Below, one piece after another: positions 55,997 to 64,000 of a DNA stretch of 64,000 bases. The stretch covers positions 1-64,000 of the forward strand of contig JAPLVR010000003.1 of assembly GCA_026397015.1 (NCBI GenBank). Reading direction: 5' to 3'. Below the pieces are notes generated by a model. The model did not search any database. It saw only the letters and a list, made by a program, of their open reading frames with translations, and had not been told where the DNA came from. Made by a program: the position numbers and the translations under genes. This DNA is from Candidatus Iainarchaeum sp. GTDB lineage: Archaea; Iainarchaeota; Iainarchaeia; Iainarchaeales; JAAZKV01. The stretch's first letter is position 1; every line of letters starts with the position of its first letter.

Positions 55997-57430
55997 TTAA
56001 TAGTGAATTATTCTGTTGAAATCGATTTCGCCGAACAAAAACAAAATGAGCACAAACCCGATTGAAAGGACAGCGCCCTTAATAACGAAGAGAATTCCTT
56101 GGAAAGGAAAGGCAGCTGAAATCAGAAAAACCACCGCGCCCGCGAATAAAATTTTTGTAAGAGTTTTGAAACTGAAAAATCCGCCGACCTTCGCACCGTA
56201 AAAAAACCCAAACAAAATGAATCCGAAGATTGAGGAAATTGCAGTGGCGGCGGCCGCCCCTTCAATCCCAAACAAAGGAATCAAAAATAAATTGAGAATC
56301 ACATCCAAAAGAAGCATCAAAAACATTATTCCAACAGAAAGCCCAAGTTTTTTTGCAGAGGTGGCGATAGAATTCAAAATCATGCACAGTGCAAAAAAAG
56401 CCATGCCCACCGAAAGAATTATCAGTGCGTTCGCCCCAATTGCATACCCTTGGTTAAATAAAAGCAATAATATTTCTTTTGGGGAAGAGGCGACAACTGA
56501 AATGCACAACACGAGAAACATGGTTGAATATTTCAGGGAGTTTCTCGAAATTTTCCCGATTGAATGAACATCTTTTTCGCTCGCTGCCGCCGAAACGAAA
56601 GGGAAAAGCAAAAACGGAATTGCAAGCACCACCATGTGAGGCAGTTTGGAAATCGTCTGCACAGCAACATAAATCCCTGAAAAATAATTATCCTTCAATA
56701 TTGCTTTTATGAGAAACAGATCAGCCGTTTCAAAAAGCTGAATAAATATTGCAATCATTATCAATGGGGCGGAATAGTAAATAACCTGTTTGAAAGAAAT
56801 ATTTGATTGCTGTTTTGAATCCCTGTTTTTAAAGACAAAAAAAATGGAGAGAAGCGCGGCAACAACGCTGGCGAGCACAAAGCCCGCAACCGAGCCAAAA
56901 ACTCCAAAGCCGACAACCGCCAACAAAAGAACAAGAACCGTTTTTGAAAAATTATAAACTATCTGAAGAATTGATTCTTCTTTGAATTTTTTCATCCCGT
57001 TCAGATAGCCCCAACCGAGGGCATAAAGCGCGCTGAAAGGAAACACAAAAGAAATCAGGCGTATGTAATGCGCAAATGAAGCGTCATTAAAAAAGGCAGC
57101 GACATTTTCCGCCCAAACAAAGAAAACAACAAATAAAAAAAGCGAAAAAGAGAATTGAACGAAAAAAACCTTCTTCACTACTGAAAAACGCCCTTTTTTC
57201 TCAACCGCTACGAAGTGGGAAAGCGTCTGCAAAAAAGAATTTTTGAATATTGTGGTGAAAACCGTTGCCAGCGAAATTATTATCCCGTAAACTCCGAATT
57301 CAGCCGGTGAAAAAAAATACTTTCCGAGAATTATGTAAACTAAAAAACCGGAAACAAAAAGAGCCAAATTTCCAAGGACAAGCCAAAAAAGCCCTTTTCG
57401 TATCTCCCGTAAATTAAATTCTTTCACCAT
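55997..57430 (-). CDS. Wzx/AglR-type flippase
   Basis: PAEFGVY, DLFLI, LIPLFGIEGAAAAT; ~14 TM. Confidence 0.9.
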   Translation of the reverse strand: MVKEFNLREIRKGLFWLVLGNLALFVSGFLVYIILGKYFFSPAEFGVYGIIISLATVFTTIFKNSFLQTLSHFVAVEKKGRFSVVKKVFFVQFSFSLFLFVVFFVWAENVAAFFNDASFAHYIRLISFVFPFSALYALGWGYLNGMKKFKEESILQIVYNFSKTVLVLLLAVVGFGVFGSVAGFVLASVVAALLSIFFVFKNRDSKQQSNISFKQVIYYSAPLIMIAIFIQLFETADLFLIKAILKDNYFSGIYVAVQTISKLPHMVVLAIPFLLFPFVSAAASEKDVHSIGKISRNSLKYSTMFLVLCISVVASSPKEILLLLFNQGYAIGANALIILSVGMAFFALCMILNSIATSAKKLGLSVGIMFLMLLLDVILNLFLIPLFGIEGAAAATAISSIFGFILFGFFYGAKVGGFFSFKTLTKILFAGAVVFLISAAFPFQGILFVIKGAVLSIGFVLILFLFGEIDFNRIIHY

Positions 57431-57587
57431 TCAAAAAAACCTTCAATTAATGCGCTTCAAAATCGAGCATATACTAATTTGTTTTTATCTCTTTAAAAAA
57501 GATTTGGTATAGTATAAAGTTCATAAGGCAATCAAAATCAGCGAAACATTAATTCAGGGAAAAAAATAAATTTGTTGCTTTGTTGAA

Positions 57588-59174
57588 GTGAGCGGTTTGA
57601 AGGACAAACAATCACAGTTGCCAAGAAAATTGTGGACCTGGCTGCCTGCAATGGCAATAATCTTTGCAGTCATTTTTATACTTCTGCAGCTGCAAAAACC
57701 CATAGCCGCGGACGAATTCTGGTATTTTGACAGTGCAAAATCTCTTCTACAAACAGGAAAGCCGCTTTTGCAATTCTGCTCAAACAGCGTGCCAGTTCTC
57801 TTTGAAGGCCATCCGCCGACATACATCTACTATCTCTCAATTTTTTTTGCACTCTTACCGGAACAGCTGATAAGATTTTCCGGAATTCCGGTCTTTCTGG
57901 CGCTCATATTTTTAACATACCTTGTCAGCCTGAAAGTCTTTTCGGAAAAAAGGAAAGCGATTTTTGTCACGGCACTTTATGCAATAAACCCGCTTGCAAT
58001 ACAGGGCGCGCTGCTGCTCGACATAGACAACACAATTCTTGCAATCGCAATAACTTTTTTCGTGCTTATTTTATTACACATTCAGGAGCAAAAAAATTTT
58101 AGGACAAGGATTGTTCTTGCCTCAGCGTGTTTCGCCTTAATTTTATGGGCAAAAACAACTGTGATTTTTATAATTTCAGTCGGGCTCGTTGCGTACGCAG
58201 TTCTTTTCGACAGGAAAAAAATAAAGGAAAATTTTGTGATGGCTCTCGGCGGGATAATTTTGTTTTGTGCAAGCTGGGCAGTATTTTGCGCCATCAGCGG
58301 AATTGAATTCTTAAGCGTTTTCGGATACATCGCAAGCACATTTGCAAGCAAATCAACATTGAGCGTCTCCGACAAAATTGTAACAATTTTATACTCAGGA
58401 TTAAAACAAAATATCCTGTGGATAACGATTCCGCTTTCGATTTTTTTCTTCTTGGGCGCAAAGAACACGAAAAACAAAAATCTGAAGCTTTTCGCGCTCG
58501 TGTCAATAATTGCTTTCATCCAGTACCTCCTTTCAATACCTTCAGGATACAGATTTCCAAAGTATATGGCGGCCTTTTTGCCGATGATAATAATTGTTGC
58601 GGGGGATGAAATAATAAAAATAGATTTCGAAAAGGCAAAAAAATTAATTCCAATTATTCTTTTTCCGGGCGCAGTATTTTTCGCGCTCCTAAGAGATCCT
58701 CTGGTGCACGTCAAAACATTTGCAGACGCCGTTTTTGTTGCCATAATAAACACACTTGCTGCCATGCCTGCGCTTTTTGTAAAAAGAAAAAAAGAGGTGC
58801 TGCTACTGCTTTACATCGGCACGTGTATCTATATAAACATTTTCCAATTGACCACTGACAGTTCAACGCTTTACAATTACAGCGAAAGGGGCCTTGTCGA
58901 CACAGCGCAATATTTGAAAGCTATGCTGCCAGCCGACTCAAACATATACACCTCCGGAAAAGAAATTGCATATTATTCCGGAACGAACAAGTATTGCTTC
59001 AAAACGCAAAACTTCACTGAGGAAATAGAGAAAAATTGCGTAAAAATGATTGTGTTGAAAAGGTATTGGGAGGAAAAAAATAATCCCGAGCTTGAGGAAA
59101 TTACAAAAAGCAATTTCTCGTTCCAAAAAGAATTCGGAGATTACAGCATTTATTCGACAAATGCGTGCAAATAA
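57588..59174 (+). CDS. GT-C (GT39/ArnT-like) membrane glycosyltransferase
   Basis: ADE, HPP, NPL, KY motifs; multi-TM. Confidence 0.8.
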   Translation: MSGLKDKQSQLPRKLWTWLPAMAIIFAVIFILLQLQKPIAADEFWYFDSAKSLLQTGKPLLQFCSNSVPVLFEGHPPTYIYYLSIFFALLPEQLIRFSGIPVFLALIFLTYLVSLKVFSEKRKAIFVTALYAINPLAIQGALLLDIDNTILAIAITFFVLILLHIQEQKNFRTRIVLASACFALILWAKTTVIFIISVGLVAYAVLFDRKKIKENFVMALGGIILFCASWAVFCAISGIEFLSVFGYIASTFASKSTLSVSDKIVTILYSGLKQNILWITIPLSIFFFLGAKNTKNKNLKLFALVSIIAFIQYLLSIPSGYRFPKYMAAFLPMIIIVAGDEIIKIDFEKAKKLIPIILFPGAVFFALLRDPLVHVKTFADAVFVAIINTLAAMPALFVKRKKEVLLLLYIGTCIYINIFQLTTDSSTLYNYSERGLVDTAQYLKAMLPADSNIYTSGKEIAYYSGTNKYCFKTQNFTEEIEKNCVKMIVLKRYWEEKNNPELEEITKSNFSFQKEFGDYSIYSTNACK

Positions 59175-59603
59175 ATGGTGAATTTTATGAGTGGAAGAAT
59201 GAGCAATTTCGCGGACAGAATTATTAAATGGAAATTTTTCAGATATTGCTTTTGCGGCGGAATAGCCGCGCTTGTGGACATGACGGTGTTTTTTTCTGCA
59301 AATGAAATTTTCAAGCTGCACTACCTAATAGCGCTTGCGATTTCATTCACCGTCGCAGCGGGTGTTAATTATTCCCTGCAAAGAAAGATAACTTTCAAAA
59401 ACACCTACAAAAAAATGCACAAACAATTCCCAGTATTCGTGGCAGTAGAATTAGTCGGGCTTCTGATCGCAGGGGTAAGCATGACGGCGCTTGTGGAAAT
59501 CTTCCGCCTCTGGCCGACATTGGCAAGGTTCATTTCAATATTTATCGCGCTGGCGTACAATTACACGGCAAATAAAAAAATAACTTTCAACATGATGAAA
59601 TAA
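59175..59603 (+). CDS. GtrA-family flippase
   Basis: FRYCFCGG..VD, NY.LQRKITF; 4 TM. Confidence 0.9.
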   Translation: MVNFMSGRMSNFADRIIKWKFFRYCFCGGIAALVDMTVFFSANEIFKLHYLIALAISFTVAAGVNYSLQRKITFKNTYKKMHKQFPVFVAVELVGLLIAGVSMTALVEIFRLWPTLARFISIFIALAYNYTANKKITFNMMK

Positions 59604-59647
59604 AAAAAGGCGGCAAAAGAATAAAATAAAAAAAAGGTGGCAACAAA

Positions 59648-60469
59648 GTGAAAAAATACAAAAATATAGAAGGAAGTTATTACGAGGAGGCGCACGGCGG
59701 CCGAAACGGGGTGCAGCAGTTTTTCTACAAATCAAGGGAAGATTATTTCATAGAATTCATGGGATTGAGAGGAAACGAGAAAATAGCGGACATTGGATGC
59801 GGATCTGGAACGTTTACACGCGCACTTGCAAAGAAATATCCAAATATAGAAATGACAGGAATTGACATATCGGAAGACGCAGTTACGTTCGCGAAAAAAA
59901 CCGCAAAATTTGAAAAAATCAAAAACGCGAATTTCACGCAAGGCGCTTTGGAAAAAATTCCGGCAAAAGACAATTCTTTTGATGCAATAATCGCATCCCA
60001 TGTAATTGAACACATCCCGAGCCCGAAAAAGGCATTAATTGAAATTAGAAAGAAGCTTCGCAGCGGCGGAACGCTTTATTTAACAACTCCAAATTACATC
60101 TCACTCTGGCCGCTCGCCGAACTTGTTTTTGACAAAGCAATGGCGAAAAAAGGTTATAGCCTGGATGAACAACACATCTCACGCTTTAATTTTTTGACGA
60201 TAAAAAAATCTGTTGAAGGGGCGGGGTTTGAAATTGAAAAAATCAAAACACTTTACATATTTTCTCTTGAAGGGGAAATTCTTTCGCAAACGCTCGGCAA
60301 GATTTTATTTTGGTTTGATAAAAAACTTGACTTTTTGCCTTTTGGAATGATAATTTACATCAAAGCAAAAAAAAAACCAGTGAAAAAATTTAATTCTAAT
60401 AAATTCAAATCAAATATTCGAAACTCAACTAAAAAATCTCAATCTCAAAATTCAGCCAAAAAATCTTAA
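59648..60469 (+). CDS. class I methyltransferase
   Basis: DIGCGSG, HVIEHI, TTPN. Confidence 0.88.
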   Translation: MKKYKNIEGSYYEEAHGGRNGVQQFFYKSREDYFIEFMGLRGNEKIADIGCGSGTFTRALAKKYPNIEMTGIDISEDAVTFAKKTAKFEKIKNANFTQGALEKIPAKDNSFDAIIASHVIEHIPSPKKALIEIRKKLRSGGTLYLTTPNYISLWPLAELVFDKAMAKKGYSLDEQHISRFNFLTIKKSVEGAGFEIEKIKTLYIFSLEGEILSQTLGKILFWFDKKLDFLPFGMIIYIKAKKKPVKKFNSNKFKSNIRNSTKKSQSQNSAKKS

Positions 60470-61147
60470 TCTCAAAAGAGTGAATGGAAATTTTACTATT
60501 TCCATCTTTCTTAATTTCGATTTGCCCGAAGTCCTGTCGGCGAAAAATATAGGCACTTCTTTTATTTTCGCGCCTTTTTTGTGACAATGATAAATCAGCT
60601 CTTCCAAAAAAGAATAGCTCGTTGATTTTATCTTTGAAAAATCAATTTTTTTTAGAAGTGATATTTTGTAACAGCGAAAACCGGAAGTAAGATCATTTGC
60701 AGGAACTCCCAAAATAAGGCGCGCCAAAAAATTTGCGCCGCCGCTGATTATTTTTCTTGAAATAGCCCAGTTAGTTCCCCCGCCGGCAACATAGCGAGAG
60801 CCTATCACCACACCAGCGCCAGCTTGGATTTCACGTATAAAATCTTTTGAATAATCAAAATCATGGGAAAGGTCAGCATCCATCGAAAAAACAACATCCG
60901 CGTTCAGCTCAAATGCTTTTTTGAATCCCGCAAGATAGGCGGAACCAAGCCCCATTTTGCACGGCCTGGAAACCAAAAAAACTTTCCTGAATTTTTTTGC
61001 AGCCTTGGCGGTGCCATCCGGCGAATTGTCATCTACAACTATTGCCTTAAATTCGACGCCCTTTATTTTCTGGGAAAGGATTTTCGGAAGAAGACGTTCA
61101 AGATTTTTCTTTTCATTATAAGTCGGAATCACTACTGCAGCAATCAA
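60452..61147 (-). CDS. polyprenol-phosphate mannose synthase (DPM1-like GT2)
   Basis: IPTYNE, DDNSPDGT, MDADLSH, DLTSGFR. Confidence 0.93.
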   Translation of the reverse strand: MIAAVVIPTYNEKKNLERLLPKILSQKIKGVEFKAIVVDDNSPDGTAKAAKKFRKVFLVSRPCKMGLGSAYLAGFKKAFELNADVVFSMDADLSHDFDYSKDFIREIQAGAGVVIGSRYVAGGGTNWAISRKIISGGANFLARLILGVPANDLTSGFRCYKISLLKKIDFSKIKSTSYSFLEELIYHCHKKGAKIKEVPIFFADRTSGKSKLRKMEIVKFPFTLLRLRFFG

Positions 61148-62619: not shown

Positions 62620-64000
62620 ATGGGAAAAACACTGAAAGCGCCGATTTTTTTATTTTTAATACTTATTTTTTTAATCCCGGGAATTTTTGCCGGCAGCGCA
62701 TCCATAAACACTTTTGATTTGAATGTCGCTTCTGCGACAACACTCTCGGGAGTCAAAGCAACTTTGACATATTTGAACACGGGCGATTTTAATGCGCTCT
62801 GCTTCAACACATCGGATAGCAGTTCGGGCAGCACATGCCAAGAAGGAGATTTTGGGGCTTTTCCAAGTTTAACTTTGGATTACTCTCTGATAAGCGGGAT
62901 GTCTTCTAATGCACAAGAAGGAAGCCACACAATTTACGCATTTGTAAAACAGGATGACGGCGGTTATTCAGCATCGACATCCAAAGGGCTGGTAATTGAT
63001 GCAAGCGCCCCGACATATACTGTTTTTCCGGCAAATAATTCAGACCATAATGTAGGCACATTAACTTTTGATATTAATTTTACCGATTCGTCTACCCCTG
63101 TTGTTTCGCTGATAAAATTGAACGGAACCACAACAATAACTGACGGATCCTCATTGAGCCCCAGTGACGGAACGCACACAATTACAATTGATGCAAACGA
63201 CGCGCTCGGAAACGCCATGGCAACAGCTACAATTACTTTCAGAGTAGATACTAACGCACCGACATCCGCGAGCGTCAGTTCGGCAAATTCTTCTTCATAC
63301 ACAAATAGCAGCACACCCACAATTACCGCGAGCGCCACGGACACAGTTTCGGGAGTCGACGGCGGGCAAATAGCGCTTTCGTGCAAGCCGACCGGCGCAT
63401 GGTATGTAAGGTCGTATGCAACGACGATTACTGATTTCAACATAGTTTTAAGCAGCTACGACTGCAACACGAGCGATGGAAATAAATTGATTTATGTTAA
63501 GTTCAAAGATGCCGCTGGCAACTGGACAACAAGTTCTGTTATTACGAACGCACTTATTGACAGGACTGTGCCGAGCGCGCCAAGCGGATTAAGTGCGACT
63601 GTTGGAAACGCACAGGTTGAATTGAGTTGGAGCGCTCCGGCTGCGGACAGCCTTCCAGGATCGGGAAACGCAGGATATAAAGTGTATAAAGACAATGCTC
63701 TTTACGCCACAGTTACTAGCGCAACAACCAAAACAGTTACAGGACTAACGAACGGCACAAGTTATGGTTTCAAAGTTAGAACTTATGATAATGCGGGAAA
63801 CTTGAGCGAAGCAACCGCGGATGTAAATGCGACGCCTTCGGCTGGGCCTGTTGCGAACGCAACCATCACAGTGAAAAGAGGAACTGCGGCGCCGAGTTAT
63901 GTGAAAAACGGTGACGCTTTAACAGTAACATGCTCTTTCAGCTACGACGTTAATTCCGCAAGAATTTATTACAAATACAGAAATCCTGACCAGGCACAGG
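62620..64000 (+). CDS. secreted Ig-like/fibronectin-III surface protein, partial (runs off the window end)
   Basis: Not in the ORF track; hand translation is open for 460 codons: signal peptide MGKTLKAPIFLFLILIFLIPGIFA, Ig-like DxxAP/DAAGN repeats, FN3 (PSAPSGLSAT...LSW...GLTNGTSY.FKV). Confidence 0.9.
   Translation, partial: MGKTLKAPIFLFLILIFLIPGIFAGSASINTFDLNVASATTLSGVKATLTYLNTGDFNALCFNTSDSSSGSTCQEGDFGAFPSLTLDYSLISGMSSNAQEGSHTIYAFVKQDDGGYSASTSKGLVIDASAPTYTVFPANNSDHNVGTLTFDINFTDSSTPVVSLIKLNGTTTITDGSSLSPSDGTHTITIDANDALGNAMATATITFRVDTNAPTSASVSSANSSSYTNSSTPTITASATDTVSGVDGGQIALSCKPTGAWYVRSYATTITDFNIVLSSYDCNTSDGNKLIYVKFKDAAGNWTTSSVITNALIDRTVPSAPSGLSATVGNAQVELSWSAPAADSLPGSGNAGYKVYKDNALYATVTSATTKTVTGLTNGTSYGFKVRTYDNAGNLSEATADVNATPSAGPVANATITVKRGTAAPSYVKNGDALTVTCSFSYDVNSARIYYKYRNPDQAQ

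Follow-up and report, generated by a model that had tools for sequence, protein, structure and literature searches.

D-x-N tripeptides are enriched in the exported proteins of an Iainarchaeota lineage and may mark a new N-glycosylation sequon

A surface protein rich in D-x-N

The DNA analysed here (the window) comprises positions 1 to 64,000 of contig JAPLVR010000003.1 of Candidatus Iainarchaeum sp. (GenBank assembly GCA_026397015.1). It ends within the gene of a predicted surface protein that contains many D-x-N tripeptides (Asp, any residue, Asn; Table 1). The gene continues on the contig to C5:65400 and the full product has 926 aa. We detected three Pfam domains in it: Big_13 (residues 108-211; 36.4 bits, cut-off 27), fn3 (residues 319-397; 31.4 bits, cut-off 25) and Big_7 (residues 534-584; 27 bits, cut-off 24.1). 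In the AlphaFold model, for which 18 orthologues were used [mean predicted local distance difference test score (pLDDT) 79, predicted template modelling score (pTM) 0.40], an N-terminal hydrophobic helix is followed by a string of beta-sandwiches (strands 29-603), by three long helices (608-686) that form a predicted helical stalk, and, in the C-terminal part, by an alpha/beta domain and a transmembrane (TM) helix (859-884). The signal region appears as helix 7-18 of the model, and the putative cleavage site (...IFA/GSA) was placed by eye rather than by a dedicated predictor. Foldseek with the full model returned generic immunoglobulin-like (Ig)/FN3 arrays only (the grappling-hook protein GhpA, titin and a Ca-stabilised adhesin). 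Because of the domains, the modelled signal helix, sandwiches and TM anchor, and the Foldseek matches, we regard the product as a predicted membrane-anchored surface protein of tandem Ig/FN3-like domains.

The first 460 residues, which are encoded in the window, include 30 Asp, 32 Asn and 4 Glu, and 26.5% of them are Ser or Thr. D-x-N occurs 11 times versus 2.08 expected, and none of 5000 shuffles reached 11. In the full protein the count was 19 versus 4.06 expected (again 0/5000 shuffles). The excess of D-x-N in this protein is far beyond chance. Within the first 460 residues E-x-N was absent (0.28 expected), N-x-D occurred three times (2.08 expected) and N-x-[^P]-S/T 12 times (8.16 expected, P = 0.08); a Ser or Thr at +2 of the Asn was found in 3 of the 11 D-x-N. 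The surface protein contains neither D-x-D nor N-x-N. The original prediction, made from the letters of the window, had counted Asp, Asn, E-x-N, N-x-D, N-x-S/T, the same 11 D-x-N tripeptides and those with +2 Ser/Thr, and all of these counts were reproduced.

In the 17 full-length orthologues, D-x-N occurred 323 times versus 80.5 expected (4.01). As a control, we counted 102 other FN3/Ig proteins that a database search had found in other organisms, and obtained 201 versus 255 (0.79). The excess is thus a property of the lineage and not of the fold. An alignment of the 18 orthologues placed D-x-N in 87 different columns, 37 of which were occupied in a single sequence, and the only invariant column was D191-x-N193. 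Each orthologue carries 9-25 sites. This suggests that the number of D-x-N sites is kept and their position is not, as is typical of sites of glycosylation and less so of a motif with a structural role. The placement of the 19 D-x-N Asn in the model (12 in coil, 5 in strand, 2 in helix) was uninformative, being the same as that of all Asn (43/64 in coil).

A separate motif, D-x-x-G-N, occurs four times in the surface protein versus 0.3 expected, as IDANDALGN, KDAAGNW, YDNAGNL and KDMAGNT (residues 191-198, 297-301, 390-394 and 588-592; window 63190 onward). This motif marks a conserved loop in the Ig-like domains, does not vary among the orthologues and is distinct from the D-x-N signal.

Table 1. 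Features of the window and its downstream flank
Feature	Position	Strand	Details
Surface protein gene, 5′ part	62620..63999	+	Open reading frame (ORF), 3′-open; 1380 nt = residues 1-460
Putative signal peptide	62620..62691	+	Residues 1-24, hydrophobic core ~8-23; read by eye
D-x-N tripeptides, window part	62716..63954	+	D33, 56, 142, 151, 191, 210, 272, 281, 286, 401, 443
D-x-N codons, first six	62716-62724, 62785-62793, 63043-63051, 63070-63078, 63190-63198, 63247-63255	+	
D-x-N codons, last five	63433-63441, 63460-63468, 63475-63483, 63820-63828, 63946-63954	+	
AglB/STT3 oligosaccharyltransferase, 707 aa	19728..21851	+	PF02516, 101 bits (cut-off 24.5), E 1.9e-29
Glycan-assembly cluster just upstream of the surface protein gene	55997..61147	mixed	Pfam matches
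Wzx/MurJ-like flippase	55997-57430	-	Pfam
GT-C (PMT_2-like) protein, 528 aa, multi-pass	57588-59174	+	PMT_2, 29 bits, six-frame genome search
Methyltransferase	59648-60469	+	Pfam
GT2 glycosyltransferase	60452-61147	-	Pfam
Geranylgeranyl-reductase-like flavoprotein	C5:65488-66636 (L001:5488-6636)	+	Directly downstream of the surface protein gene
Cis-prenyltransferase (UPP-synthase family)	C5:66944-67663 (L001:6944-7663)	-	Downstream of the surface protein gene

D-x-N in the secretome and among relatives

The host assembly (G000; 898,628 bp, 6 contigs, 85% complete) yielded 846 genes with our own simple caller based on ORFs and codon usage. Localisation classes were assigned from Kyte-Doolittle hydrophobic segments which, like the gene calling, is a crude home-made heuristic. 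D-x-N was enriched more than twofold in proteins with an N-terminal signal or anchor (the secreted set) and in multi-pass membrane proteins, and was as frequent as expected in cytoplasmic proteins (Table 2). Shuffling of whole proteins gave 176 D-x-N in the secreted set, and shuffling within blocks of 30 residues gave 187, none of 200 shuffles exceeding 217. The observed 415 lie far above this maximum, so local composition is not the cause. The cytoplasmic proteins gave 270-280 D-x-N in shuffles, with 270 observed.

Every pair of residues separated by a gap of 0-3 was scanned, provided that 20 or more occurrences were expected. D-x-N topped the scan of the host secretome with a z of 18.1, the next best pair reaching 5.8. 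The observed/expected ratios (O/E) of related patterns were ordinary, both for the reversed, shifted or Glu-containing forms (N-x-D 1.01, DN 0.65, D-x-x-N 1.04, E-x-N 0.89) and for pairs of the same spacing (D-x-D 0.97, N-x-N 0.89) or the parts of the canonical sequon (N-x-S 1.18, N-x-T 0.96). In the cytoplasmic proteins the top outlier was C-x-x-C (160 versus 28.7, z 24.5), the expected signature of Zn and Fe-S motifs and a positive control for the scan.

At a Poisson p < 0.05, 29 of 132 secreted proteins were individually significant for D-x-N, versus 15 of 563 in the cytoplasmic class. Enrichment was seen in each of the four length classes of secreted proteins (3.32, 1.99, 1.77 and 2.55). 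The proteins with the most D-x-N are not related to one another: a giant MG2-like protein (55 versus 12.5 expected) and a class III signal (pilin-like) protein (14 versus 3.6), with ConA-like, MopE-like and beta-propeller proteins also among the top carriers. Multi-pass proteins were oriented by the positive-inside rule, a crude heuristic that worked for 77 of the 109. In these 77 proteins, outside loops contained 53 D-x-N versus 19.9 expected (2.67) and inside loops 23 versus 19.5 (1.18). The share of outside-loop Asn lying within D-x-N rose with distance from the TM segment, from 1-2% at up to 10 residues to 11% at 25-50 and 22% beyond 50. This rise is consistent with an enzyme that acts some way above the membrane, and would also be expected of a signal that resides in large exported domains.

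Table 2. D-x-N in protein classes of the host genome and in extended patterns
Class or pattern	Set	Observed	Expected	O/E
N-terminal signal or anchor	132 proteins	415	175.3	2.37 (z 18.1)
Multi-pass membrane	109 proteins	108	50.6	2.14
Other TM	42 proteins	53	49.9	1.06
Cytoplasmic	563 proteins	270	275.9	0.98
D-x-N-x-[ST]	Five positive genomes	168	50	3.34
D-x-N-x-[^ST]	Five positive genomes	640	255	2.51
[^D]-x-N-x-[ST]	Five positive genomes	820	826	0.99

The sequence context of the motif was compiled from 804 D-x-N sites pooled from five positive genomes. The pattern ratios (Table 2) indicate that the Asp at -2 carries the signal and that a +2 hydroxyl adds a little to it; canonical N-x-S/T without a -2 Asp leaves no trace in these secretomes. 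E-x-N was not enriched in the pool (0.90). Pro was depleted next to the Asn of D-x-N, both in the host genome (5 versus 14.9 at -1, 7 versus 14.9 at +1) and in the pool (9 versus 29 at -1, 12 versus 29 at +1), which is depletion and not strict exclusion. Oligosaccharyltransferases (OSTs) are described as excluding Pro at +1 (PMC8342417). In the pool, Asp (5 versus 45) and Lys were depleted at -1, whereas Phe, Trp and Tyr were enriched at +1; Thr was mildly enriched (83 versus 58) and Lys depleted at +2; Ile and Leu were enriched at -3 and +3. Lys and Glu were also depleted near the sites in general.

We then counted D-x-N in the secreted proteins of 20 related genomes, from each of which 54-200 kb were sampled and run through the same pipeline (Table 3). 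Family and genus labels are analysis codes, and the numbers of positive and negative lineages are descriptive, as related genomes are not independent of one another. Within one order of Iainarchaeota, only certain lineages show the D-x-N trait. Four relatives (G003, G024, G025 and G032) are clearly positive, with 8, 9, 6 and 6 individually significant proteins, respectively; G006 is less firmly so (three proteins). D-x-N also came first in the pair scan of G003 (z 11.9 among 1384 pairs) and in that of G024 (z 16.8 among 1198 pairs). The two genomes with a WWGEG motif in their AglB, G013 and G005, are moderately or weakly positive. The sample of one further genome, G045, held one secreted protein and was uninformative.

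Table 3. D-x-N in secreted proteins of sampled relatives
Genome	Group	AglB motif	Observed/expected	O/E
G001	Same genus as host	WWNQG	41/11	3.79
G003	f1	WWDQG	151/59	2.55
G024	f1	WWDQG	152/43	3.57
G006	f1	WWNEG	49/19	2.52
G013	f1	WWGEG	44/23	1.95
G005	f1	WWGEG	84/58	1.45
G025	f2	WWNEG	58/26	2.21
G032	f9	WWDEG	56/19	3.02
G044		WWDEG	21/9	2.30
G017	f1	WWDQG	9/22	0.41
G026	f3	WWDYG	81/65	1.24
G028	f5	WWDVG	10/9	1.10
G034	f11	WWDYG	2/8	0.24
G038	f15	WWDNG	15/21	0.72
G039	f16	WWDQG	25/19	1.30
G041		WWNQG	31/26	1.19
G042		WWDKG	12/13	0.94
G043		WWDYG	10/9	1.09
G036	f13		3/5	not classed

Cytoplasmic O/E values in the relatives were 0.37-1.07 everywhere except in G032, where pieces of a giant surface protein were misclassed as cytoplasmic. 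Locus L105 of this genome (minus strand of G032:C5, 6346-15904) contains a row of three ORFs in the same orientation (237, 623 and 2315 aa) that look like pieces of one protein. They have 9, 23 and 89 D-x-N versus 2.1, 4.7 and 18.3 expected, and no signal peptide was detected in them, which accounts for the misclassing. The AglB-flanking loci of 33 records of metagenome-assembled genomes contained too few secreted proteins each to be of use as a pooled test, except for L147 and L164.

The original prediction had taken D-x-N for a selected extracytoplasmic signal and had named beforehand three findings that would speak against it: no enrichment across the secretome, an equal enrichment in cytosolic proteins, or an equal frequency in homologous domains from lineages with canonical AglB. 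What we found was the reverse in each case, namely enrichment in signal/anchor (415/175) and multi-pass proteins (108/51), none in cytosolic proteins (270/276), and no excess in homologous domains of other organisms (0.79 in 102 FN3/Ig proteins versus 4.01 in the 17 orthologues) or in nine related genomes, which lie near or below 1.3. The expectation that D-x-N sites would be N-x-S/T in canonical lineages was not borne out. When D-x-N sites of the host were aligned to their best matches in trait-negative genomes, N-x-S/T stood at 4 of 100, equal to the baseline for other Asn (66/1558, 4%), and the Asn itself was kept at 32% of D-x-N sites and 32% of other Asn.

One trait-negative genome with a canonical AglB (WWDYGHW), G026 (L073-L082, G026:C1:1-200000), showed a different pattern in its secreted proteins. 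D-x-N-x-[ST] occurred 27 times versus 11 expected and D-x-N-x-[^ST] 53 times versus 53, with N-x-S/T overall at 1.23. This looks like a PglB-type preference for an extended sequon in an archaeon and could be an intermediate state, although it rests on small numbers from a single genome.

AglB and the neighbouring glycan-assembly genes

The AglB encoded in the window is the sole STT3-family gene that a PF02516 profile search found in the host genome, where it is accompanied by dolichol-pathway and glycan-assembly genes. AglB homologues were present in 40 of 41 related genomes searched. The best solved relatives of the host enzyme are eukaryotic STT3A and the AglB of A. fulgidus (AfAglB); bacterial PglB was reached only at E ~6e-4. 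Most catalytic motifs are present, but the canonical WWDYG reads WWNQG, its Asp being replaced. In PglB, as set out in PMC7226087, the WWD motif reads the +2 hydroxyl through an Asp hydrogen bond and R331 reads the -2 Asp/Glu. The fourth position of WWDXG is reported to vary in Euryarchaeota (PMC11407970). Of the 23 f1 AglBs, five have D as the third motif residue, nine have N, seven G and two S, so that the Asp is replaced in 18/23. Such variation is unusual for the residue that in PglB bonds the +2 hydroxyl, and it fits relaxed selection on +2 recognition. Some f1 genomes also carry divergent second AglB paralogues with 30-35% identity to the host AglB (G006:C1:102851-104821, G012:C28:1106-3097 and G009:C9:11414-13431).

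We compared the AglBs of nine positive and nine negative genomes column by column. The best candidate is residue 595, which is Thr in 8/9 negatives and 0/9 positives. All six positives of f1 have Lys at 595; this Lys is f1-specific and absent from the positives G025, G032 and G044. Residue 597 is Asp in 7/9 positives and Asn in 8/9 negatives, and the negative G017 has E595 and N597. Without phylogenetic correction, these two residues are a lead to a possible specificity determinant. An Arg about 10 residues before the VGEE of external loop 5 (EL5) is f1-specific, but occurs also in the negative G017 and is absent from the positives G032, G025 and G044. Searches against solved OSTs aligned the N-terminal TM and WWD regions of AglB and not the EL5 region, in which an equivalent of PglB R331 was sought.

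Three other candidate determinants were rejected. The residue following the EL5 VGEE (Ser or Asn) fails, as G044 is positive with VGEEN while G042 and G041 are negative with GEES. The fourth WWDxG residue (E or Q) fails as well: WWxEG is mostly positive, but G036 could be assigned to neither class, and three genomes with WWxQG (G041, G039 and G017) lack the trait. The acidic motif of external loop 2 (EL2; EED versus GDN or EAG) varies among the positives. The EL2 segment (residues ~178-185) reads FFEEDSLGF in the host; in the homologous AglBs compared with it (loci L006-L027 and L030) it reads AQGDNAFGF in genera g3 and g5 and FYEAGTLGH in G032. Some of the EL2 acids, candidates for the metal-binding D-x-D/E motif, are thus replaced in apparently intact genes.

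Just upstream of the surface protein gene lies a glycan-assembly cluster (Table 1). It includes a PMT_2-like GT-C protein, which was recognised in a six-frame genome search, whereas hmmscan of the called protein gave no Pfam family. Set amid a flippase and a methyltransferase/GT2 pair, this gene looks like part of an accessory glycan-modifying island. The PMT_2-like protein was found in 3 of 41 relatives searched (G000, G013 and G023), does not track the trait, and was rejected as a reader of D-x-N. The reductase-like flavoprotein and the cis-prenyltransferase downstream of the surface protein gene plausibly act in the synthesis of a dolichol carrier.

Explanations of the D-x-N signal

The directionality of the motif, its enrichment in exported proteins only, the depletion of flanking Pro, the independence of fold and the turnover of sites all argue for recognition by an enzyme outside the membrane. 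D-x-N would then be a lineage-specific acceptor signal for a modification made outside the cytoplasmic membrane. We think it on balance probable that D-x-N is a new sequon for N-glycosylation, read by AglB, in which Asp stands at -2 and a +2 Ser/Thr is not required. N-glycosylation by AglB appears to be the best reading because an Asn-centred motif with a -2 acid has one known precedent, the PglB sequon. We infer from these patterns that Asn is the modified residue, a glycan the modification and AglB the enzyme, AglB being the most plausible reader. The single AglB would glycosylate the Asn; its sequon would need the -2 Asp, as does that of PglB, and would no longer need the +2 Ser/Thr. The surface protein, with its 19 D-x-N sites, would be a heavily decorated example. 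More tentatively, several lineages of Iainarchaeota (DPANN) may have replaced N-x-S/T by D-x-N, which would make their AglB the first OST to use a -2 Asp alone. As part of this same tentative proposal, the trait would have been gained or lost repeatedly in one order, with f1, f2 and f9 positive and the close f1 relative G017 negative.

The bacterial and canonical systems differ from the proposed one in several respects. N-x-S/T is regarded as the near-universal N-glycosylation sequon, and the additional -2 acid in bacteria is the known exception. The PglB sequon, D/E-x-N-x-S/T, shares with D-x-N the -2 acid and the disfavour of Pro beside the Asn, and PglB, like AglB in the reading proposed here, is a single-subunit STT3-family enzyme on the outer membrane face, as far as PMC7226087 describes it. 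However, PglB accepts Asp or Glu at -2, whereas here only Asp is enriched (2.37; E-x-N 0.89-0.90), and PglB requires +2 Ser/Thr, whereas here D-x-N-x-[^ST] reaches 2.51 and N-x-S/T without Asp stays at 0.99. The host enzyme is moreover an archaeal AglB, with STT3A and A. fulgidus AglB as its nearest solved relatives. Canonical N-x-S/T glycosylation by AglB/STT3 through WWDxG shares with the proposed system an STT3-family enzyme and exported targets such as pilin-like and surface-array proteins. In contrast to it, the secretome studied here is not enriched in N-x-S/T unless a -2 Asp is present, the WWD Asp is replaced in most f1 AglBs, and D-x-N sites do not map onto N-x-S/T of trait-negative homologues. 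Tandem Ig-like/FN3 proteins elsewhere have the same Pfam domains (Big_13, fn3, Big_7) and beta-sandwich string as the surface protein, but D-x-N lies below expectation in them. Neither a D-x-N sequon nor N-glycosylation in Iainarchaeota/Diapherotrites was found described in the openly searchable literature.

Several observations weigh against a sequon read by AglB. The whole case is one of sequence statistics. No AglB column separates the nine positive from the nine negative genomes by a shared residue. The AglB of G017 is 52% identical to that of the host and shares the exact segment FNWWDQGHILAF with the positives G003 and G024, yet the trait is absent from this genome (9 versus 22). Because G017 is trait-negative despite the same WWDQG-region segment, the specificity determinant may be another part of AglB or a different gene. 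Among positive genomes, the Asn was kept at 53% of D-x-N sites versus 44% of other Asn, which is only slightly better. The positive calls of G001 and G044 rest on one protein each and that of G013 on two, and G036 (3 versus 5) was assigned to neither class. Lastly, the hydrophobic preference at -3, -1, +1 and +3 places many sites in beta-strands, which a structural surface motif would match too.

The first two genomic points, the lack of an AglB position that splits all positives from all negatives and the absence of the trait from G017 despite its similar AglB, would also be expected if D-x-N were read by another extracytoplasmic system of the positive lineages, such as a different transferase, an enzyme that modifies Asn or Asp, or a factor for binding or quality control. 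The patchy distribution of the trait across f1, f2 and f9 resembles that of an accessory gene. However, the only other GT-C found was the PMT_2-like protein, in 3/41 relatives, and this query did not find it in the strongly positive G003, G024 and G006; the search for alternative enzymes covered the PMT_2 family. We know of no enzyme family that uses a D-x-N signal, our literature search having been made on glycosylation terms. We consider a different reader unlikely.

A structural or physicochemical surface motif without covalent modification, such as a metal or Ca2+ site or an Asp-Asn pair on a strand face, is less likely still. The hydrophobic residues at -3, -1, +1 and +3 and the depletion of Lys and Glu nearby are what exposed strand faces would show; a few D-x-N sites belong to conserved domain motifs (the invariant IDANDxLGN, and VDTNAP); and Ca2+ binding is possible in tandem Ig-like adhesins, for example the Foldseek match 4p99. 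On the other hand, N-x-D (1.01), D-x-D (0.97) and N-x-N (0.89) were not co-enriched, so that the classical Ca-binding patterns D-x-[DN]-x-[DN] are not behind the signal, and Ca-binding turns, which the original prediction had offered as an alternative, are disfavoured. There is no excess in these domain families when they occur in other organisms (0.79) or in sister families, D-x-N is enriched across unrelated folds as well as in small proteins and membrane-protein loops, the positions of D-x-N turn over quickly among orthologues, and 12 of the 19 D-x-N Asn lie in coil in the model (a placement shared with all Asn).

That the WWD-to-WWN change in the host AglB created the D-x-N specificity, the source the original prediction had thought simplest, is very improbable: the host and its congener G001 combine WWN with the trait, and the WWD Asp bonds the +2 hydroxyl in PglB (in the account of PMC7226087), but the distribution among relatives contradicts it, as the WWDQG genomes G003 (2.55) and G024 (3.57) are the strongest positives, G032 (WWDEG) is positive too, the WWGEG genomes G013 and G005 are moderately or weakly positive, the WWNQG genome G041 is negative (31/26, 1.19), G017 is negative with the same WWDQG segment as G003 and G024, and the WWNQG loci L147 and L164 have 0 sites versus 7.1 expected.

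If D-x-N is indeed an N-glycosylation sequon read by AglB, our view of sequon recognition by STT3-family enzymes would change. Prediction of glycosites from N-x-S/T would be wrong in these organisms and would miss about 8 sites per 1000 residues, and D-x-N would offer a short orthogonal tag for glyco-engineering. The comparison of G017 with the host, G003 and G024 within one family, and of G025 and G032 with G034 and G026 between families, would provide contrasts for finding the residues that determine sequon specificity.

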